A stretch of DNA of 64,000 nucleotides from Oscillospiraceae bacterium (lineage in GTDB: Bacteria > Bacillota > Clostridia > Oscillospirales > CAG-272). The notes beneath the pieces were generated by a model. That model had not been told where the DNA came from. It saw nothing but the letters and a program-made list of their open reading frames with translations, and did not search any database. Position 1 is the stretch's first letter. Every line of letters begins with the position of its first letter. The DNA lies in the NCBI GenBank assembly GCA_015063625.1, contig SVTT01000005.1:44979-108978 (forward strand). Reading direction: 5' to 3'. Of the stretch, positions 3,916-63,102 are shown one piece after another. Both the position numbers and the translations under genes were made by a program.

Positions 3916-4344
3916 GTGAAAAAAACAAAACAAAAACATTATGCTTTTAATACCCAACTGTTTTTTGTCATCGCCCTTTTTGCCATTTTTTTGGTTTTAT
4001 CTATATGTGCTGCAATCGAACGAGAGATTGGACTTTCAATAGGCTTTGCGATTGCCACTCTGCTTCCCATCTTTGTTTTTTTAATATCACCATTGTATAC
4101 GGCTTTTTCGGATGAAGAAATCGAAATCGTTTATATAATGGGACAAAGAGAAATTATTAAGTGGAGAAACATAAGGAGCATACGTTTAAACGGAGCTTGG
4201 ATTAGCAGAGGTGGAGGATTCCCTCACTATGAGGTTGCTTACCCAACCAATGCGAAACGTGCATTTTTTGTTCGCGGAGAAATCCCCAAAACAAGAAAAA
4301 CAAAAAAATATATCAAAATGTATTATAAGAAAGATATTATATAA
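3916..4344 (+). CDS. hypothetical small membrane protein encoded in an AT-rich islet
   Basis: GTG start at 3916 with GGCGGTGA upstream, giving 142 aa. Two N-terminal hydrophobic helices (LFFVIALFAIFLVLSICAAI, IGFAIATLLPIFVFLISPL) are followed by a K/R-rich tail. A-rich codon usage is visibly unlike the neighbouring genes. A TTGCAA-17-TATACT promoter lies at 3861-3889. Confidence 0.5.
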   Translation: MKKTKQKHYAFNTQLFFVIALFAIFLVLSICAAIEREIGLSIGFAIATLLPIFVFLISPLYTAFSDEEIEIVYIMGQREIIKWRNIRSIRLNGAWISRGGGFPHYEVAYPTNAKRAFFVRGEIPKTRKTKKYIKMYYKKDII

Positions 4345-4430: not shown

Positions 4431-4640
4431 ACAGAAAAAAGCACTTGCGTGAGCAAGTGCTTTTTTCAACGAAATCCGCCTTCTGCGGAAGAAATCCACC
4501 TGCGGTGGATGAAATCGCTTCGCGATGAAATCCGACTTCGTCGGGATAGGAGAGGCGGATTTTATTTCATCTGAGGCCGTAGGCTGAAGATTTCATCCGA
4601 GCATGCGAGGATTTCATCGTGCAGAGCACGATTCCATTTT
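4431..4640 (-). repeat. zipper element, copy E (word GATGAAATC(C) / (G)GATTTCATC)
   Basis: A terminator-like hairpin comes first (ACAGAAAAAAGCACTTGC-GTGA-GCAAGTGCTTTTTT, 4431-4466). GAAATC(C) then occurs at 4471, 4491, 4511 and 4527. Its spacers are hairpins: CCGCCTTCTGCGG, CCACCTGCGGTGG, TCGCTTCGCGA, CCGACTTCGTCGG. The complementary word GATTTCATC-type occurs at 4557-4571, 4589 and 4609, with a degenerate copy at 4630. Confidence 0.6.
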
Positions 4641-14620: not shown

Positions 14621-14626
14621 GTGGCT

Positions 14627-14930
14627 CGCCCAATCAGCGGCGCGATGCGGCGTTGCGCCTCGACTCGCGGTGCTCGGCGTAGGTAACTACGCCGTCGCCC
14701 CCCTCGCTCGGTGCGCCTTGCCTCGCTTGCGTCTTGAACGAGCGGGGAAGCTTGTACTTCGCCCAATCAGCGGCGCGATGCGGCGTTGCGCCTCGACTCG
14801 CGGTGCTCGGCGTAGGTAACTACGCCGTCGCCCCCTCGCTCGGTGCGCCTTGCCTCGCTTGCGTCTTGAACGAGCGGGGAAGCTTGTACTTCGCCCAATC
14901 AGCGGCGCGATGCGGCGTTGCGCCTCGACT
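14627..14930. repeat. GC-rich tandem repeat, 132-133-bp unit x ~2.3
   Basis: CGCCCAATCAGCGGCGCGATGCGGCGTTGCGCCTCGACT starts at 14627, 14760 and 14892. The copies are near-identical apart from one C-run length difference. The array begins 6 nt after the ABC ATPase stop codon. Confidence 0.9.
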
Positions 14931-14950
14931 TTCTTCTGCTGTGCCATAAC

Positions 14951-15003
14951 AAAAAGCAAAACAGGAGCAGATGGCTTTTGCCTTCTGCTCCTGTTTTGCT
15001 TTC
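14951..15003. terminator. bidirectional terminator between the ABC operon and convergent recG
   Basis: AAAAAGCAAAACAGGAGCAGA ... TCTGCTCCTGTTTTGCTTTC, a ~17-bp stem with A and T flanks. Confidence 0.7.
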
Positions 15004-23050: not shown

Positions 23051-23235
23051 GAAAGTTCTCCCGAAAAAGCTTCGTTATATCAGTTTTTGCATTAAAATCA
23101 GTCCTTGTAATAAAGAAATAAAAGTGTTATAATATATATTGGATTTTTGGATTTTCGCTGCAAACACGGCAAAAATAGTATAGACAGAACGCACGGGGCA
23201 TCATACGGTGCGCCACGGTGCGTTTTTTGGAAAGG

Positions 23236-26200
23236 ATGGCAAAAATGCGGGAAAAGGATAAGCAGCGTGCTCGCGAAAAGGAGCGCGTGACCCGCCGCGG
23301 CGTGACTGCCGTTCCCGATCGCAGAGATCGGGAGCGCGTGCGCAACGCCTCTCGGCGTATGCATGAGTTTGACGACTATATGAATGACGCCCCCGAGGAC
23401 TCCCGTCGCAAGGAGCAGGAAAGGGGAGCTCCGCGCGAGGGACATGAGCCCGAGAGAGGATCCGGAGCTGAGGAAAAACGCCCTGCGCAGGGCGAGGTGC
23501 GTCGCGCCGAGGGTCGCCGTGAGAATGCCAAAAGGGTGCTGGAGCCCACCGCTGAAAAGGCACCCGTGAGTGAGGGGAATCCCGAGCGTTTTCTGCACCA
23601 GATCGTACCTTACGTGATGTTCTGGGTGGCGCTGTTTGCCGGTGTCAGCTTTTTGCTTCGCGATATTTTCAATATGGACGGCTCGGCAGGAGCCTTCGGC
23701 ACGTGGCTTGCCAACGTGCTTTGCGGTCTGCTCGGCGTCGCGGCATATCTTTTGCCTGCCATGCTTGTGGCGCTTTCACTGAAGTGGCGTCGCTTCGTCA
23801 AGGAGGGGCAGCTGGCAAAGCGTCTGATGCTTTCGTTTGCCTTCATGCTGCTGCTCTCCTCGATCATCCACGTGTTCACCGACCCCGATAACGTGCGCAA
23901 GGTCACCGCGCTCAGTGTGCTTTATGCAGGTGGTATCGCCGGAAGCGGCGGCGGTGTGCTCGGCGGCTTTTTCGGGGAATGGATCGGCTTTTTTCTGCGC
24001 AAGATCGGCACGGGACTCCTGATGATCCCACTGCTACTGATCGTGAGCATCTATCTGGTGGGACTGACACCCGAGGAGCTCTGGCAGCGTGCCGAGAGCA
24101 AATGGAGGATCATGAAGCAGCAGCGGCGCGAGAGCCGTTTGCAAAAGGAGGAGCGTGCGAGCGTCAAGCACGCCGAAAAGGAGGAAGAGCGCGCACTGCG
24201 CGAGCAGGAAAAGGAAGAAAAGCAGGAGCGTCGGGAGCAGGAAAAGAAGGAGGGGAAGGACTCCTCCGAATGGCGTGAGCCAAGACCTCTCAAGCGCTCG
24301 GGCGGAACCATGTATCGCTTCCGCGAGGATGAGCCCGACGTGGATGCCGAGCCGCCCCGACATAAGCCGCGTGAGGACCGTGACGAGGAGGTGGAGGCGC
24401 CCGAGGAGCCCCGTGAGGAGCGTACCGAACCTCGCCGCAGAAGTAACATCGATGCCGCCTTCGGTGGCGGTGTTGAGGATTACGGCAGGGATGAGCCGAT
24501 GACCGCACCCACGGGTAGCGGCAATGAGCTATTGGATATTCCCGATGACGAGCCCGAGATCACCGAGCCGAGCGAGGGTGCGAGGGCAATTTTAGACCAG
24601 GCGGGTCAGGGAGGCAACCCGGGCGACCGCATTGAAACCATTCTCAACGATATGTTTGCTACCCCGGCACCCACACCTTCGCCGCAGACGCCCAAGGAGG
24701 ACAACGCCAATTATTACGCGCCCTTTGCGCTACCTGTCCGTCCCGAGCCAAGACGCGATAAAGGGGATGCTGCAGCAGCCTCGCGTATTGTGATCACTCC
24801 CAAGGACCGGAGCGTGGCTCCTGCGGAGCCGACGGGCGAGCGCTACGGCACTGTGCCCCCCTCGGCTGTCGATGCGCCGCGTGGAGAGGAACGGCTGGGA
24901 AGCCCCGCTTCTCAGGGCGGCACCTATCAGCCCGCGGCTCGTCCCGCACCCCGTGATGAGTATGCATACGGGGAGAGAAAAAAGCCAAACGACCCTGCGG
25001 CGTACCGCTGGGATGTTCCCGCACGCCATGATGACACACCTGCGGCAGCCGAGCCGCGCTACGGCGTGACTCCTTCCACCGAGCAACCCTACCGTACGCC
25101 TGCGGCAGCCGAGCCGCGCTACGGCAGTGCCACTCCCACTGAGCAGCCCTACCGTACGCCTGCGGCAGCCGAGCCCTGCTATGGCAGTACCACTCCCACC
25201 GAGCAACCCTACCGTACGCCTGCGGCAGCCGAGCCGCGCTATGGCAGTACCACTCCCACCGAGCAGCCCTACCGTACGCCTGCGGCAGCCGAGCCGCGCT
25301 ACGGCGTGACTCCTTCCACCGAGCAGCCCTACCGTACACCTGCGGCAGCCGAGCCCCGCTATGGCGTGACTCCTCCCGCCGCAAGACCCGACGGAGATCA
25401 CACCTTCGGCTTTGCCGAGGATCCTCTTGACGGTGTTTCGGAGGTGTCGGATGTCACTGTCACGCGCGATGCACCGCAGCAACCCTACGACGACCCCGAT
25501 GTCGATACCTTCAGCGAGTTTCTTGGTGAGCTGGAGGATGACCTTGACGGGGAGGGCAACGTTTCCGAGATCGTCACACCCACGCCTGCCGTGCGTGCGA
25601 CCTACGAGCCTGTGCCTCCCCTGTCCGCGCAGACACCCTCGCGTACCGCGACCCCCTTTGCGCCGCGCGGCGAGGAGGAAGCACCTCGCTTCGCCGCTCC
25701 CACAGAGCAGCCCCGTCGCACCCCTGCGGAGGGCACGCCCCGTTATGAGAGACCTGTCCCCGCAGAGCCTGCGCGTGCCCCTGAGGCACCCCGTTACGGC
25801 ACTGCCGTTCCCGTTCTGTCCCGTACCGAGCCCGTAGAGGATAAGCCCCCCGTGCAGCCTCCTGTGATCGAGGAATATAAGTTCCCTCCGATCACTCTGC
25901 TCAACGAGGATAAAAACGAGAAGAACCGTGATTTCTATGAGGAGATCGAGGACACCAAGGAGGTTCTCCGCAGCACGCTTGCCAGCTTTAACATTCACAT
26001 TCAGGATGAGGTGGCATGCTCGCACGGACCTTCGATCACGCGCTATGAGCTTCGCCCCGTCGCGGGAACCAGCGTGCGCTCGGTAACCAACCGTATCGAC
26101 GATATCTCGCTGAATCTGGCAGCGTCGGTGCGTATCGAGGCGCCCATTCCGGGCAAGCCCGCGATCGGCATCGAGGTACCCAACAAGGTGCGGGAAACCG

Positions 26201-27396
26201 TTTATATGCGCACCATGCTGGAGTCCGAGACCTTCAAGCGATCAACCAAGCCCTTTGAGGTGCCTCTCGGTCTTGATGTCGGCGGCGGGGTACGCCTTTG
26301 CGACATCACCGCCATGCCCCACCTGCTGGTAGCGGGTACGACCGGCTCGGGTAAATCGGTTTGTATCAATTCGATCCTGGTCAGCCTGCTGTACAAGACC
26401 TCGCCCGAGGATCTGCGGCTGATCCTGATCGACCCGAAGCAGATCGAATTTGCGCCCTACGAGCATATTCCGCATCTGTATATGCCCATCGTCACCGATA
26501 TGCAGCGTGCCGCAGGCGCACTTGCCTGTGCGGTGCAGGAGATGGAGCGTCGCTTCTCGCTCATTAAGGATGTGGGTGTACGCGACATCAAGGCGTATAA
26601 CGAGGCGGTGAAGAATGACCCTGACCGTGAGCACCTGCCCCGCATCATCATCGTGATCGACGAGTTTGCCGATCTCAAGATGAGCTGCACCAATAACGAT
26701 CCCGAAAACTTTACCTGTCGTATCGCCCAGAAGGCACGTGCCGCAGGCATCCATCTGATCATCGGTACGCAGCGCCCCTCGGTGGACGTCATTACGGGTA
26801 AGCTGAAGACCAATATCGCATCCCGTATCGCGTTTATGGTCAAGCAGCAGGTCGATTCCCGTACCATTCTGGACGTCAACGGTGCAGAGTCGCTGACGGG
26901 TAAGGGTGATATGCTGTATATGCCTGCCAATTCGCAGGATAAGCAGCCCTGCCGCATTCAGGGCGCCTTCGTTTCGGACGGGGAGCTTGAGCGCGTGGTA
27001 TCCTACGTGCGCGACCATAATCCGCCCGTGCAGTATAACCGCGAGTTCATGAACCAGATCGAGATCGAGATGGCAAAGGCGGCAAATACGGGTCGTAAGA
27101 ACGGTGAGGACATTGAGGAGGAGGATGCCGATGGCAGCGAGGATCCGAAGTTCCTTGAGGCTGTCGAGCTGGCGGTCGAAACGCAGAAGATCGCGACCTC
27201 GCTTCTTCAGCGTCGCCTTGGTGTAGGCTACGGACGTGCCGCTAAGATCATTGACCGTATGGAGGATCTCGGGCTGGTCAGTGCCCCCGACGGCAATAAG
27301 GCGCGTAAGGTGCTTCCCGCCGCGCAAGGATATCTCAATCATATGGCGGCAGAGGGGGATGAGGGTGACGTCGACGATTTCGGCGATTATACCTGA
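23236..27396 (+). CDS. ftsK: DNA translocase FtsK/SpoIIIE with a very long low-complexity linker
   Basis: The N-terminus is charged, followed by 4 TM helices and a ~650-aa P/E/A/R-rich linker. The motor has Walker A GTTGSGKSV and Walker B IIIVIDEFADL, and the gamma wHTH is LLQRRLGVGYGRAAKIIDRMEDLG. The start is uncertain between ATG 23218, 23236 and 23245. Confidence 0.9.
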   Translation: MAKMREKDKQRAREKERVTRRGVTAVPDRRDRERVRNASRRMHEFDDYMNDAPEDSRRKEQERGAPREGHEPERGSGAEEKRPAQGEVRRAEGRRENAKRVLEPTAEKAPVSEGNPERFLHQIVPYVMFWVALFAGVSFLLRDIFNMDGSAGAFGTWLANVLCGLLGVAAYLLPAMLVALSLKWRRFVKEGQLAKRLMLSFAFMLLLSSIIHVFTDPDNVRKVTALSVLYAGGIAGSGGGVLGGFFGEWIGFFLRKIGTGLLMIPLLLIVSIYLVGLTPEELWQRAESKWRIMKQQRRESRLQKEERASVKHAEKEEERALREQEKEEKQERREQEKKEGKDSSEWREPRPLKRSGGTMYRFREDEPDVDAEPPRHKPREDRDEEVEAPEEPREERTEPRRRSNIDAAFGGGVEDYGRDEPMTAPTGSGNELLDIPDDEPEITEPSEGARAILDQAGQGGNPGDRIETILNDMFATPAPTPSPQTPKEDNANYYAPFALPVRPEPRRDKGDAAAASRIVITPKDRSVAPAEPTGERYGTVPPSAVDAPRGEERLGSPASQGGTYQPAARPAPRDEYAYGERKKPNDPAAYRWDVPARHDDTPAAAEPRYGVTPSTEQPYRTPAAAEPRYGSATPTEQPYRTPAAAEPCYGSTTPTEQPYRTPAAAEPRYGSTTPTEQPYRTPAAAEPRYGVTPSTEQPYRTPAAAEPRYGVTPPAARPDGDHTFGFAEDPLDGVSEVSDVTVTRDAPQQPYDDPDVDTFSEFLGELEDDLDGEGNVSEIVTPTPAVRATYEPVPPLSAQTPSRTATPFAPRGEEEAPRFAAPTEQPRRTPAEGTPRYERPVPAEPARAPEAPRYGTAVPVLSRTEPVEDKPPVQPPVIEEYKFPPITLLNEDKNEKNRDFYEEIEDTKEVLRSTLASFNIHIQDEVACSHGPSITRYELRPVAGTSVRSVTNRIDDISLNLAASVRIEAPIPGKPAIGIEVPNKVRETVYMRTMLESETFKRSTKPFEVPLGLDVGGGVRLCDITAMPHLLVAGTTGSGKSVCINSILVSLLYKTSPEDLRLILIDPKQIEFAPYEHIPHLYMPIVTDMQRAAGALACAVQEMERRFSLIKDVGVRDIKAYNEAVKNDPDREHLPRIIIVIDEFADLKMSCTNNDPENFTCRIAQKARAAGIHLIIGTQRPSVDVITGKLKTNIASRIAFMVKQQVDSRTILDVNGAESLTGKGDMLYMPANSQDKQPCRIQGAFVSDGELERVVSYVRDHNPPVQYNREFMNQIEIEMAKAANTGRKNGEDIEEEDADGSEDPKFLEAVELAVETQKIATSLLQRRLGVGYGRAAKIIDRMEDLGLVSAPDGNKARKVLPAAQGYLNHMAAEGDEGDVDDFGDYT
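25036..25380 (+). repeat. in-frame 60-bp tandem repeat (x ~5.7) inside ftsK
   Basis: The unit is ACNCCTGCGGCAGCCGAGCCNNGCTAYGGC...GAGCARCCCTACCGT, encoding TPAAAEPRYG(V/S)(T/A)(P/T)(S/P)TEQPYR. Copies start at 25036, 25096, 25156, 25216, 25276 and 25336. Confidence 0.9.
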
Positions 27397-27416: not shown

Positions 27417-27817
27417 AAAAAAGCACTTGTGGCATAGCGTGATGTCCTTAACGGACAAATCACGCTAACTAAGTTTGCCCTTGCGGGCAAGTGAAGTTTA
27501 CTTCGTAAGTGAAGTTATCCTGCGGATAGTGAAGTTTTGCCTTCGGCAAAGTGGGCAAACTTAACTTCACTGCGAGCTTTGGTGAGCAACTTCACTGTGT
27601 ATCACACAACTTCACTTTTGCGGCAGCAAAAACTTCACTGACAGAAAAAGAGCAAACATACAAGATTTTTGTCTTGCGTGTTTGCTCTTTCTGTTTGTGA
27701 TATGGGTTTGGGCTTAGCCCATAGAGTATTTGACTAGTCAAATGCGATGCTCGCACTTAGCGGTATTTTTCAATTTCTCCGCTAAGGACATCGCCCAATA
27801 GCCGCAAGTGCTTTTTT
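27417..27817. repeat. ~39-bp imperfect inverted repeat (split terminator stem) bracketing a ~325-bp hairpin-rich segment
   Basis: The left arm is AAAAAAGCACTTGTGGCATAGCGTGATGTCCTTAACGG (27417-27454). The right arm is CCGCTAAGGACATCGCCCAATAGCCGCAAGTGCTTTTTT (27779-27817). The outer 17 bp differ at one base and match the stem of the intact terminator at 4435-4466. Confidence 0.7.
27437..27694 (+). repeat. zipper element, copy A (word GTGAAGTT / AACTTCAC)
   Basis: GTGAAGTT occurs at 27491, 27509 and 27529. AACTTCAC occurs at 27563, 27588, 27608 and 27631. Every spacer is self-complementary. The central hairpin is TTTGCC-TTCG-GGCAAA. Capping hairpins lie at 27437-27465 and 27641-27694. Confidence 0.75.
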
Positions 27818-27884
27818 CAGGTCACAGGGTCACCCGCAGTCCCCCTGTATAAAAAAGGAAAAAAGTGTCTATTCTCATTTTTGA

Positions 27885-27928
27885 GGGGCGCGAAAGATCC
27901 CCCGAGAGCGCGATGCTCTCGGGGGATC
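27885..27928 (-). terminator. terminator hairpin after RNase P RNA
   Basis: Minus strand reads GATCCCCCGAGAGC-ATCGC-GCTCTCGGGGGATC followed by TTTCG. The 14-bp stem is perfect but the T-run is weak. Confidence 0.55.
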
Positions 27929-28285
27929 TGAACCTTGCCGATAAGCCGGGTTCTGTCGTGAACGGCCATCTATCTGCGCCCTGCGTCGCCGCAGGGCTTC
28001 GGGATCGCTCCCGTGCCACCCGGGGGAATACGTCGGGCAAACATCCCCCATACGGTGTTGCTTCGGATAGGGTTTACAGCAAACCTATGTTACCATAGGA
28101 GTGGGTGAGCTCTTACCTCGCCTTTCCATCCTTACCCCTCTCTGAAAGGGGCGGTTTATTTCTGTTGCACTTTCCCGGCAGTCGCCTGCGGCTGACGTTA
28201 TCAGCTATCCTGCCCTTTGAAGCCCGGACTTTCCTCACGGTAATACCTTTCGGCAACATACCGCGCGGCCGTTTGGTAAGGTTAC
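27929..28285 (-). ncRNA. rnpB: RNase P RNA, bacterial type A
   Basis: The minus strand contains GAGGAAAGTCCGGGC, AGTGCAACAGAAATAAACCGCC, GGTAAGGATGGAAAGGCGAGGTAAGAGCTCACC and AGATAGATGGCCGTTCACGACAGAACCCGGCTTATCGG. P1 pairs AACCTTACC with GGCAAGGTT. A TATAAT lies at 28292-28297 (minus). Ends are approximate. Confidence 0.93.
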
Positions 28286-32567: not shown

Positions 32568-32663
32568 AAAGGACCTCCTTTGGCTGTAAAGCTTATCAGC
32601 TTGATTTCCTCTTGTCTATTATTATAGCGAGAGGCGGCGAATTTGTCAATGAAAAAGCACCCC

Positions 32664-32955
32664 TTGGGCGACCTACGGTAAAGCAGGTCGCCCAACTAAG
32701 TTTGCCCATTCGGGCAAGTGAAGTTTACTGCGTAAGTGAAGTTATCCTGCGGATAGTGAAGTTTTGCCTTCGGCAAAGTGGGCAAACTTAACTTCACTTG
32801 TGCGAAGCACAAACATCACTGCAAAGCAACTTCACTTTCACGTTAGTGAAAACTTCACCTATTACCTCCCGAAAAACGCAAATGTAACACACCATACTTG
32901 CAGAGCAAGAAGTGTGAAAAGGAGTACAGGCAAAATGCCCGTACTCCTTTTTGTT
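32664..32955 (+). repeat. zipper element, copy B
   Basis: GTGAAGTT occurs at 32718, 32736 and 32756. AACTTCAC occurs at 32790, 32828 and 32851, and AACATCAC at 32812. The left ~100 nt are almost identical to copy A. The capping hairpins are TTGGGCGACCT..AGGTCGCCCAA (32664-32695) and AAAAGGAGTAC..GTACTCCTTTT (32917-32951). Confidence 0.75.
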
Positions 32956-33142
32956 GTATTGGCGGTTGCCAAAACCTGCTTTATCGCAGGTCGCCGTTGC
33001 GTGGGGCTTTTGGTGTCCTGTGTTTCCGAATCGCTTTTGAGCGCTCTGCCCTTCGGGAATATTTGATCGCAATGCACCGTGCGCGAAAAAAGACCGCCCT
33101 GCCGATATTCGGCAGGGCGGTCTGCTGTAAAATGCGCTCGGA

Positions 33143-41699: not shown

Positions 41700-41810
41700 A
41701 ACCGCATAGAAATCGGGGGTGCTGCCAAACAGGGCGGCTGAGATGGGCAATGCCCAAACCCTTAAACCTGATACGGATAATGCCGGCGTAGGGAAGAGAT
41801 CGAGTATTCT
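41700..41810 (+). ncRNA. TPP (THI-box) riboswitch aptamer
   Basis: CGGGGGTGCTGCC...GGCGGCTGAGA...AACCCTTAAACCTGATACGGATAATGCCGGCGTAGGGAAG matches the THI element consensus (GGGGTGC / CTGAGA / ACCCTTTGAACCTGATCTGGATAATGCCAGCGTAGGGAA). Confidence 0.9.
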
Positions 41811-41846
41811 GTTACCGCACGGAGATTTTCGTGCGGTAATTTTATA
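41811..41846 (+). terminator. riboswitch expression-platform terminator
   Basis: TTACCGCACG-GAGATTTT-CGTGCGGTAA followed by TTTTAT, 18 nt before the thiT RBS. Confidence 0.7.
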
Positions 41847-42691: not shown

Positions 42692-42764
42692 TTCTTTCAT
42701 CGTCCTCTCTTGTCCCTGGCAAAGTGCAAGCATCGCATTTGACCCAACAAATGCAAATGGGCTA

Positions 42765-43217
42765 GGCAAGAGGGAGTGATCTGAACCCGCCCAAAAGCCC
42801 TGATTCCGATAGGGGGCGGCGCCTTCGACGACCCGTTTTTCGGCACCCTCGCGGCACGTTCGGATACGATCAAACCGGTAGGGGTCGGCGCCTTCGACGA
42901 CCCGTCTTTCGGCGCCCTCGGCGACTCATTCTTGGTTGCCGTTCGTTTGTAACGGGCTGCCGTGGGCGTTAGCCCCTACCATGTATGATATCACCCGAGC
43001 TTCGAGGGAACAGATTTTTGCGGCAGCATGGGCGGACATCTGCCACCAAAATCATCTTAAAATCAAGGCTTTGAGGGTCATCCGAGTTTTGAGAGAGCAA
43101 ATGTTTGCAGACGCAAGGGAAATTCTTGCAGTCATATGCGGATATGACAAGGGAATTCCCCGATGCGGATGCGGATATCTGCCTCTCAAAACCGAGTTCA
43201 GATCACTCCCTCTTGCC
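42765..43217. mobile_element. MITE copy 1 (453 bp) with 17-bp terminal inverted repeats, flanked by TA
   Basis: The TIRs are GGCAAGAGGGAGTGATC (42765-42781) and GATCACTCCCTCTTGCC (43201-43217), a perfect pair. TA lies at 42763-42764 and 43218-43219. There is no ORF of its own. Confidence 0.7.
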
Positions 43218-43219
43218 TA

Positions 43220-43493
43220 GGCAAGAGGGAGTGATCCAAACCCGCCCAAAAGCCCTGATTTTCAGCGCTTTCGGCGGCAAGTGCGCTTGTAAAGTCCGCA
43301 CTTGACTTCGCGCCCTTGCCACCAAAATCATCTTAAAATCAAGGCTTTGAGGGTCATTCGAGTTTTGAGAGAGCAAATATTTGCAGACGCAAGGGAAATT
43401 CTTGCAGTCATATACGGATATGACAAGGGAATTCCCCGATGCGGATGCGGATATCTGCCTCTCAAAACCGAGTTCAGATCGCTCCCTCTTGTC
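43220..43493. mobile_element. MITE copy 2 (274 bp), same family, abutting copy 1
   Basis: The TIRs are GGCAAGAGGGAGTGATC (43220-43236) and GATCGCTCCCTCTTGTC (43477-43493). TA flanks lie at 43218-43219 and 43494-43495. The 176-bp core 43318-43493 matches 43042-43217 with 5 substitutions. Confidence 0.7.
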
Positions 43494-43539
43494 TAAATTC
43501 CCTAAAGCTCTGCTTCACTTCGGGGATCCCTACGCAAGC

Positions 43540-43796
43540 ACAGAGAGCAGACACGCAAGACGCTTCGTCTTGCGTGTCTGCTCTTCTGTTAGTGATGTTT
43601 TTGCTATCGCAAAAGTGATGTTATTCGCTTCGCTCATCATGATGTTGCTCGCCAAGGCTCGCAGTGATGTGATGTTTGCCCACTGTGCCGAAGGCACAAC
43701 ATCATTCACGCAGTGAACATCACAAGGCGAAGCCGACATCACTTGCCCATAAGGGCAAACATCGTTTCGCGTGATACTCCGTTAAGAGTATCACGC
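43540..43796 (-). repeat. zipper element, copy D (word GTGATGTT / AACATCAC)
   Basis: Hairpin B is ACAGAGAGCAGACACGCAAGAC-GCTT-CGTCTTGCGTGTCTGCTCTTCTGT (43540-43589). GTGATGTT-type words lie at 43592, 43615, 43639 and 43664. AACATCA(C/T) lies at 43698, 43716 and 43735. Hairpin A is GCGTGATACTC..GAGTATCACGC (43769-43796). Confidence 0.75.
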
Positions 43797-61501: not shown

Positions 61502-61794
61502 AAAAGGAGTACGAACATTTGTTTGTACTCTTTTTCACACGCCTTGCCTGCAAGGTATAGTGTGTTACATTATACTTTTGTTTTTTGGGTGGTAAAAGGT
61601 GAAGTTTTCGCTATCGCGAAAGTGAAGTTGCTATGCAGTGAAGTTTGTGCTGCGCACAAGTGAAGTTAAGTTTGCCCACTTTGCCGAAGGCAAAACTTCA
61701 CTATCCGCAGGATAACTTCACTTACGCAGTAAACTTCACTTGCCCCTTGGGGCAAACTTAGTTGGGGCACCTGCAATATCGCAGGTGTCCCAAC
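61502..61794 (-). repeat. zipper element, copy C (inverted orientation)
   Basis: On the plus strand, GTGAAGTT occurs at 61599, 61622, 61638 and 61660, and AACTTCAC at 61694, 61714 and 61732. Its reverse complement aligns with copy B at roughly 85-90% by eye. The capping hairpins lie at 61502-61535 and 61761-61794. Confidence 0.75.
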
Positions 61795-62570: not shown

Positions 62571-62655
62571 GCGAGAGTGGCGGAACTGGCAGACGCGCAC
62601 GTTTGAGGGGCGTGTGATTTCCATCGTACGGGTTCAAGTCCCGTCTCTCGCACCA
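62571..62655 (+). tRNA. tRNA-Leu (anticodon GAG), class II with long variable arm, CCA encoded
   Basis: Acceptor GCGAGAG pairs with CTCTCGC. The anticodon stem is CACGT/GCGTG with loop TT-GAG-GG. The variable arm is TGATTTCCATCGTAC and the T-arm is ACGGG-TTCAAGT-CCCGT. Length 85 nt. Confidence 0.92.
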
Positions 62656-63102
62656 ACAAAGAAAAGGGCACCCAATTGGGTGTCCTTTTCTTTGTTGGTA
62701 CAAGGGCTCGCGGATGCGAGCCCTTGCCGCCTTCGCTTGCCTTCCTTCTTATACCGTACGAAACGGCGGCAGAGAAGAACGCCGATTATTGCAGGGCAAA
62801 ATGGCGGCGTTACCGCCAAGGCGTTCTTCAGACGTGCAGGGCAAAGCCCTGCTAAGTGGTTCAACGTCCCGTCTCTCGCACCAACAAAGAAAAGGGCACC
62901 CGATCGGGTGCCCTTTTCTTTGTTGGTACAAGGGCTCGCGGATGCGAGCCCTTGCCGCCTTCGCTTGCCTTCCTTCTTATACCGTACGAAACGGCGGCAG
63001 AGAAGAACGCCGTTTTTTGCTTGCAAAATGATAGCGTTCAGCCGTCAAGGCGTTCTTCAGACGTGCAGGGCAAAGCCCTGCTAAGTGGTTCAACGTCCCG
63101 TC
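62631..63102 (+). repeat. tandem duplication (227-229-bp unit x 2 plus 16 nt) that begins inside the tRNA-Leu T-arm
   Basis: GGTTCAA(C)GTCCCGTC occurs at 62631, 62858 and 63087. The following TCTCTCGCACCAACAAAGAAAAGGGCACCC... is repeated at 62646 and 62874. The two units are near-identical except for one internal ~35-nt segment. Confidence 0.9.

Follow-up and report, generated by a model that had tools for sequence, protein, structure and literature searches.

What is the hairpin-rich element that recurs between genes in a 64,000-nt stretch of an Oscillospiraceae bacterium genome (assembly GCA_015063625.1, contig SVTT01000005.1, positions 44,979 to 108,978 of the forward strand; hereafter the window), and what does it do? 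The question is raised by copy B of this element, at positions 32664–32955, in which short words of constant sequence alternate with small hairpins whose sequence differs from copy to copy. Copy B belongs, as a solo member, to the Gut-1 RNA family (Rfam RF01706), which is a multi-copy, structured intergenic element of about 170–300 nt in gut Clostridia, and the Rfam model covers only part of a larger two-arm element with a long-range helix. The original prediction, made from the window alone, had described copies A, B and C and a variant at 43540; it overlooked the Gut-1 identity, the long-range helix (P0), a fifth copy and a link to genes for a four-helix-bundle protein. Gut-1 was previously reported as a probable non-coding RNA from human-gut metagenomes only, with no function, organism or gene association assigned (Weinberg et al. 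2010, PMC2864571), and that paper was the sole match in a literature search on Gut-1.

Identity and architecture of copy B

The Rfam model of Gut-1 is 77 nt long and has a gathering score of 50 bits, which is passed by the left arms of copies A (55.7 bits), B (53.3 bits) and C (50.4 bits), while copy D remains below it (34.8 bits). Copy B matches the published plan of three consecutive hairpins, GUGAAAU-type linkers and covarying stems. Its parts are as follows.

32664–32695 (+), capping hairpin hp0, TTGGGCGACCT..AGGTCGCCCAA, read from the sequence immediately before the AACT linker
32693–32767 (+), Rfam Gut-1 match (RF01706, 53.3 bits, E=1e-9), three hairpins with GUGAAGUU between them
32698–32707 (+), 5' half of the long-range helix P0, AAGTTTGCCC, with its partner at 32780–32789
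32718, 32736 and 32756 (+; span 32718–32763), left-arm words GTGAAGTT, with hairpins 2 and 3 in between
32764–32776 (+), hairpin 4 of the left arm
32780–32789 (+), 3' half of P0, GGGCAAACTT
32790–32858 (+), right arm, words AACTTCAC (32790), AACATCAC (32812–32819) and AACTTCAC (32828 and 32851), separated in this order by the hairpins TTGTGC-GAA-GCACAA, TGC-AAA-GCA and TTTCAC-GTTA-GTGAAA
32888–32916 (+), hairpin of an extra module, CACAC..CTTGC-AGA-GCAAG..GTGTG
32917–32956 (no strand assigned), hairpin B, an A-run and an 11-bp stem with a conserved A.C mismatch, followed by a T-run

All copy B sequences quoted in the original prediction were found at the positions given there, including the word AACATCAC at 32812 and the extra module, which is indeed common to copies B and C and missing from A, and which also occurs at locus L099. 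The fourth left hairpin had been proposed with a TTCG loop; the hairpin is present and its loop reads TTC. The 5' half of P0 overlaps the 5' half of hairpin 1, so that the two share bases. Read on the opposite strand, the right arm matches the covariance model built for the left domain at 42.1 bits. Hairpin B, judged from its sequence, looks like a bidirectional terminator, which the strict terminator scan did not call because of the A.C mismatch. This mismatch stands at the identical stem position in copies B (32921–32947) and C (61505–61535); on the opposite strand it is a G.U pair, which suggests that the hairpin functions for transcripts arriving from the right-arm side.

Range and common plan of the family

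A pattern scan of one genome per species gave 120 loci, from which 42 non-identical full elements of other Clostridia metagenome-assembled genomes (MAGs) were parsed. True elements were all found in Clostridia-type MAGs labelled Oscillospiraceae, Acutalibacteraceae, Ruminococcus, Christensenellaceae or Eubacteriales; in other phyla the only pattern match that hits the left-domain covariance model is a weak and partial one, at an Akkermansia locus. The model also matches only 2 of 80 pattern-matched viral loci, and a phage origin was rejected on this count.

All 42 elements share one plan, which consists of a hairpin, a linker of 4–5 nt, four word-linked hairpins, the P0 segment and right-arm words separated by hairpins. 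The 3' segment of P0 (9–10 nt) is complementary to the start of the left arm and lies 87–95 nt from the 5' half. The right arm carries three to four words (AAYWUCAC) that are the exact reverse complement of the left words (GUGAWRUU), and its spacer hairpins are free in sequence. In copy B the left words are GTGAAGTT, and the four right-arm words, AACTTCAC apart from the one AACATCAC, are separated by three hairpins. At least five word classes exist (GTGAAGT, GTGATAT, GTGAAAT, GTGATGT and TCGATAT), with (A/T)GAAATC of copy E as a sixth variant, and whatever the class, right-arm and left-arm words are reverse complements of one another. Tandem G.A pairs are frequent in the first hairpin of the right arm, as in TGTGAGGC-GAA-GCCGAACA and in copies A and D. 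An inverted right arm is already present in the flanks of the 2010 Gut-1 alignment, for example in BAAZ01000095, where it was left unmodelled (PMC2864571).

All 42 parsed elements have a hairpin at the capping position, in many cases a tRNA or gene terminator. At three loci (L098 440–500, L109 2600–2680 on the minus strand, and L151) it is formed by the 3' coding end of a RumA-like methyltransferase (..GHVE[ST]VVCL..) and its non-coding complement just after; because the coding end itself is used, this hairpin is made locally and not carried by the element. The TCGATAT/ATATCGA class (L109 2380–2660 on the minus strand, L151, L158 and L164) is distinguished by a longer centre, as many as six right-arm words and the absence of the Rfam-style closing pairs, and it invariably lies upstream of a four-helix-bundle gene.

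Five copies in the window

Besides copy B, the window carries four further copies, and the five fall into three word classes. Scores are given for the Rfam model and for model R1.

27436–27695 (+), copy A, capping hairpin, Gut-1 left arm, four-word right arm and terminator-like hairpin; Rfam 55.7 bits, R1 80.6 bits
61495–61793 (-), copy C, of the same subtype as copy B; Rfam 50.4 bits, R1 80.4 bits
43535–43800 (-), copy D, word class GTGATGTT/AACATCAC; Rfam 34.8 bits (sub-threshold), R1 58 bits, E=2e-10
4435–4637 (+), copy E, words (A/T)GAAATC and ATTTCAT, P0 AAATCCGCC/GGCGGATTT; R1 34.5 bits, E=6e-5

Copy E represents the third word class and was absent from the earlier listing. Its capping hairpin is a terminator, and it stands directly 3' of the terminator downstream of the open reading frame (ORF) 3916–4344.

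Although they stand at unrelated loci, A, B and C have left arms that are 95–97% identical. The near identity of the left ~100 nt of copies A and B, as first described, is borne out by 97% identity between 32694–32798 (105 nt) of copy B and 27467–27571 of copy A; copy B and the reverse complement of copy C are 87% identical over 239 nt. All 20 occurrences of GTGAAGTT in the window lie inside copies A, B and C, where 1.5 would be expected by chance, and none of 100 shuffled sequences reached 20. The right arms differ in their spacers. The one before the last word reads, exactly as quoted in the earlier description, TTTTGC-GGCA-GCAAAA in A, TTTCAC-GTTA-GTGAAA in B and TTTCGC-GATA-GCGAAA in C.

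Two details of the right arms need correction. The first right-arm spacer of copy A is no unrelated sequence without a fold: it is a hairpin with tandem G.A pairs, of a type that recurs in the family. The word AACATCAC in copy B was seen as a sign of exchange between subfamilies, but is indistinguishable from the result of one T>A substitution, and the variant is found again at L079 and its complement at L002.

Structure is conserved while sequence changes

The element evolves in a way that preserves its structure. By direct reading, the stems of copies B and C differ by four double, compensatory changes (one in hp7, one in the capping hairpin, which is G-C>C-G, and two in hairpin B, both G-C>A-T) and by one single-sided change, in the capping hairpin; loop changes are frequent. 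In a MAFFT alignment of the 42 left domains, 93.5% of the cells of hairpins 1–3 are paired, compared with 33–54% when partners are slid. Double-change cells in the left arm number 94, against 25.5 after shuffling (0/500 shuffles reach 94), and both sides have changed in 11 of the 21 left-arm pairs. The claim that hairpins are rebuilt by paired substitutions is thus strengthened by the larger sample, and the predominance of stem-disrupting substitutions that had been named as the outcome speaking against it was not seen, either between B and C or across the 42 elements.

The extended parts of the architecture behave likewise. P0 is paired in 98.4% of cells over the 42 elements, with an outer pair that is A-U in 30, C-G in 8 and U-A in 4, a count that is biased since the element finder itself demanded P0. 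Independent support for P0 comes from loci that were picked through the protein gene described below, and the RNA minimum-energy folds of the left domains of copies A, B, D and E contain the helix. Among 112 right-arm spacers, 100 are distinct, and their end-anchored positions are 89% Watson-Crick compared with 27 +/- 1.7% when shuffled.

Two further pairings were considered and rejected. Loop–loop kissing of left-arm (UNC) with right-arm (GNA) hairpins is not supported, as loop complementarity equals the permutation expectation. Pairing of left with right words into a rod fails at the level of single words: for the 55 deviant left words and the 13 deviant right words, the opposite arm never shows a compensating change; the similar left arms of A, B and C combined with different right-arm spacers also speak against a rod.

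Association with genes of four-helix-bundle proteins

Clustering of the genes near the 120 pattern-selected loci identified one specific recurrent neighbour: immediately past the right arm, on the element's own strand, lies a gene for a protein of about 117 aa. The protein is a member of PF05635 (23S rRNA intervening-sequence protein) / TIGR02436 (four helix bundle protein) and matches PDB entry 2RLD with E=3e-36. Among about 85 pattern-selected loci, 6–7 have a PF05635 gene directly downstream. Conversely, 80 metagenome loci chosen solely by the four-helix-bundle protein gave 40 distinct upstream regions; the left-domain model has a match directly upstream of the gene in 31 of these, in each case on the gene's own strand, and four more elements were recognized by eye.

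The four-helix-bundle loci usually have a tRNA gene and its terminator ahead of the element. Between the last word and the gene, the GTGATAT and GTGAAAT classes have a sigma-70 promoter, and at L135 and L141 the last right-arm word abuts the -35 box of the promoter. At L127 and L199 the gene is placed between a full element and a near-identical copy that has only the left arm, and L143 contains a tandem array of four elements. No second conserved gene recurs alongside the four-helix-bundle gene, either downstream or within 2.5 kb. A role in anti-phage defence was considered for the protein and set aside, as PADLOC returned no match.

The PF05635 family is homologous to Avd, the accessory protein of diversity-generating retroelements (DGRs) (PMC10053308), and it is also the ORF inside the intervening sequence (IVS) of 23S rRNA, which has been called a selfish element (PMC4990558). 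No earlier report of a link between Gut-1 and these proteins was found in a limited literature search, and the family is unmentioned in the supplements of the 2010 Gut-1 paper (PMC2864571).

Genomic setting, strand and molecule

The genes on either side of copy B had been described as divergent. This is wrong: ppdK (874 aa) and the gene for the 566-aa membrane protein are both on the minus strand and co-directional. Copy B sits between the terminator of the former and the promoter of the latter.

33091–33123 (-), intrinsic terminator of ppdK, from the terminator scan
32621–32649 (-), sigma-70 promoter of the 566-aa gene, a perfect TTGACA-17-TATAAT (12/12 matches) that faces away from the element

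Six elements have the minority orientation, copy B among them, and copy D is arranged likewise. In 33 of 39 cases the upstream neighbour of the element, a gene or a tRNA terminator, is co-oriented with it and ends about 20–75 nt before it. The nearest homologues of the flanking gene at the ppdK locus are 63–71% identical and not syntenic, and offer no empty site for comparison.

GC skew is positive across the whole window and copies occur on both strands; orientation therefore follows local genes and not replication, and control of orientation by replication, with a single-stranded lagging-strand template, is ruled out for the window. At the GTGAAGT-class loci (L098, L127 and L128) only a ribosome-binding site lies between the last word and the four-helix-bundle gene, and the element is therefore part of that mRNA. 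The tandem G.A pairs of the right arm are formed on the plus strand only, and U.G/G.U closing pairs are replaced by U-A/A-U in copy E. Word spacing ranges from 17 to 27 nt, which means that there is no helical phasing and counts against binding as double-stranded DNA. Since the element is quasi-palindromic, a transcript of either strand would be similarly laid out, which fits its occurrence in both orientations. Rfam types Gut-1 as a small RNA (sRNA) gene; a conserved promoter of the element's own was not found in the parsed elements or in the promoter scan of the window.

A codon/anticodon or T-box-like role was also considered, in which unpaired GAA/GAU or UUC/AUC triplets would correspond to the neighbouring tRNA. 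It was rejected, the adjacent tRNAs being Tyr, Thr, Cys, Gln, Ala, Arg and others.

Possible function and alternative explanations

For the mechanism of the Gut-1 element we infer the following, and rank it first, as a tentative preference that stops a little short of an even balance: the element is a structured RNA whose repeated words are presented to a multimeric Avd-like protein. It would act as RNA on the Gut-1 strand, transcribed either when polymerase reads through from the co-oriented gene upstream or within four-helix-bundle mRNAs, as their leader or as a spacer between cistrons. Its hairpins would serve as rigid spacers, so that the short single-stranded words are exposed as a repeated array to a multimeric nucleic-acid-binding protein. 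The candidate partner is the PF05635/TIGR02436 Avd-like four-helix-bundle protein, the best candidate because its gene has the element directly upstream in most of the sampled loci. For Avd itself a pentamer has been published. Solo copies such as B may provide extra trans sites between an upstream terminator and the next promoter. A bolder version is doubtful: that Avd-like four-helix-bundle proteins without a retroelement have Gut-1 as their cognate ligand, in the form of RNA or of folded single-stranded DNA, that the two together form a new protein-nucleic acid or mobile cassette system at stable-RNA genes, and that each word binds one subunit of the multimer.

Several observations weigh against an RNA display array. 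The inner stems do not have the G.U excess typical of RNA (17 G.U versus 13 A.C among about 1200 pairs), and folding with DNA parameters gives no strand preference. The loops of the two arms are mirror images, UNC on the left and GNA or GNNA on the right, with GNA/GNNA falling on the strand that carries AAYWTCAC; left arms fold better on their own strand in 42/42 elements and right arms in 40/42, and at L019 both arms score above the Rfam threshold on opposite strands. Such mirror symmetry is unexpected from one plus-strand RNA. Many loci have a strong tRNA terminator just before the element and the next promoter just after it, and transcription over these loci could be low. In the window, copies B and D are in the minority orientation, the best candidate for a promoter of copy B itself is weak (9/12 matches), and the four-helix-bundle gene is absent from all 64 kb.

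Much of this would suit the explanation ranked second, a non-autonomous mobile or recombining DNA repeat, either similar to miniature inverted-repeat transposable elements (MITEs) or repetitive extragenic palindromes (REPs), or a folded single-strand recombination site like an integron attC, with the arms as mirrored ends or sites and the four-helix-bundle gene as cassette cargo. Mirror symmetry and the missing G.U excess over A.C would fit such DNA, and five copies in 64 kb, nearly identical left arms of A, B and C at unrelated loci and the many assemblies that break at the element point in the same direction, as do the array at L143, the genes flanked by a full element and a left-arm-only copy at L127 and L199, the adjacency to hairpins, terminators and tRNA 3' ends, and the frequent position between terminator and promoter. 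It is nevertheless rather unlikely, given that no recurrent transposase, integrase or REP-associated tyrosine transposase (RAYT) was found within 2.5 kb of the 120 loci or downstream of the four-helix-bundle gene, and neither a target duplication nor an empty site was found. Identical left arms joined to different right arms are unlike simple copy-and-paste, the architecture is kept with compensatory change over loci of many Clostridia MAGs, orientation is biased toward the upstream gene, and the element is rare in viral contigs (2/80). A generic hairpin array at 3' ends with no dedicated protein, working as a backup bidirectional terminator, an insulator or an exonuclease block in the manner of enterobacterial REPs and bacterial interspersed mosaic elements (BIMEs), would account for the position after gene ends and terminators, the enrichment between convergent genes (10 convergent versus 2 divergent settings), the terminator-like hairpins on both sides of A, B and C, and the similar RNA that a quasi-palindrome gives from either strand. 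This is improbable, since it leaves unexplained the strictly conserved words of 7–8 nt, their exact complements in the right arms of at least five classes, P0, the recurrent tandem G.A hairpin and the tight tie to one protein family.

The two remaining explanations are both very improbable. An operator array in double-stranded DNA, bound by a transcription factor that controls the adjacent promoter, is suggested by the words abutting the -35 box at L135 and L141 and by the outward-facing promoters 15–40 nt from copies B and D; the words are unphased at 17–27 nt, compensated spacer palindromes are unnecessary for duplex binding, and the GTGAAGT-class loci have no promoter after the element. Two convergent sRNA genes, with one Gut-1-type RNA per strand, would explain why both arms of L019 exceed the Rfam threshold on opposite strands and why each arm folds best on its own strand, but no conserved promoters occur beside either arm, the symmetry is broken by P0 and the tandem G.A hairpins, and the orientation to the four-helix-bundle gene is fixed.

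Relation to known systems

Comparison with described systems places the element closest to Gut-1 RNA itself (RF01706, PMC2864571), with which it shares the above-threshold left arms of A, B and C, the three hairpins, the GUGAAAU-like words and the gut metagenome habitat; the Rfam model spans just a portion of the left arm and does not include P0, the fourth hairpin, the inverted right arm or the capping hairpin. The REP, BIME and REPIN (REP doublet) sequences of Proteobacteria are likewise short, multi-copy and intergenic, combine a conserved head with hairpin units and form inverted clusters at gene 3' ends. Stems of REPs keep their sequence throughout a genome, and a RAYT transposase is associated with them, whereas here stems vary, no RAYT or transposase recurs near the 120 loci, and three to four direct units are followed by three to four inverted ones, with a long-range helix in addition. 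Integron attC sites resemble the element in conserving structure over sequence, in the imperfect inverted repeat around a variable, branched region and in the small genes adjoining. They differ in having a consistent R''/R' core (RYYYAAC/GTTRRRY) and a nearby integrase and in lying downstream of the gene, while the element is upstream and carries word arrays. When the core was checked by eye in copies A, B and C only, a flank of copy B could be read as GTTGGGC, and A and C did not fit; no integrase was found among the recurrent neighbour genes.

With DGR Avd and its RNA, and with the 23S rRNA IVS and its S23p protein (PMC10053308, PMC4990558), the element has in common the PF05635 family and a gene next to or inside a structured RNA, beside stable-RNA genes. 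Unlike these, it has no reverse transcriptase or pair of template and variable repeats, and it lies outside rRNA, downstream of tRNA or protein genes. RNAs that act as protein sponges (RsmZ/CsrB, CrcZ) and TRAP-binding leaders also present short, repeated single-stranded motifs between hairpins to a multimeric partner, which is here only proposed; the words of the element are unrelated to theirs, it carries words together with their complements, and it apparently has no promoter of its own. Arrays of clustered regularly interspaced short palindromic repeats (CRISPR) have repeats of 23–50 nt, unique spacers of similar length and cas genes, in contrast to the words of 7–8 nt, the self-complementary spacer hairpins of 9–19 nt and the inverted arms found here.

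Other features of the window

A module of about 120 nt that lies downstream of the terminator of copy A (27700–27925) is conserved across genomes (L080, L095, L103, L105 and L110). It consists of gggtttgggct..gccca, then the palindrome gcatttgac-tagtcaaatgc and then ttctccgctaag; it has no Rfam match and no tie to RNase P at other loci. RNase P RNA (class A, 245 bits) is encoded at 27926–28284 on the minus strand, 230 nt from copy A. Orthology to the RNase P locus is not supported as the source of the conserved flanks of copy A, as other long-form loci have no RNase P RNA. Beside copy D, a repeat cluster at 42760–43500 comprises two 179-nt copies that are 97% identical (43041–43219 and 43317–43495) and repeats of 44–46 nt, with no credible Rfam match.

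Elsewhere in the window, a thiamine pyrophosphate (TPP) riboswitch is located at 41705–41812 (+), and GC-rich tandem repeats at 14626–14967 have a period of 132 nt and 2.5 copies, two of which are 100% identical. Downstream of a tRNA-Leu gene, a segment of about 228 nt is duplicated (62571–63102), and each copy contains a long terminator-like palindrome (62647–62704 and 62875–62932). Six copies of a 60-nt tandem repeat (24976–25452) lie within a 1392-aa ORF (23218–27396) and probably encode a repeated protein unit of 20 residues.

Implications

The Gut-1 motif, an orphan since 2010, is now placed in named Clostridia MAGs. For annotation it matters that assemblies of gut MAGs break at these repeats, which lie between terminators and promoters. 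There is now also a specific candidate for the partner of Gut-1, a relative of DGR Avd and of the 23S rRNA IVS proteins, from a family whose stand-alone members are likewise functional orphans. Two open questions thereby reduce to one, namely binding of the element by this protein and the form in which it is bound. If the element is indeed the ligand, three orphans would be joined: the Gut-1 motif, the S23p proteins of the 23S rRNA IVS and the stand-alone relatives of DGR Avd.
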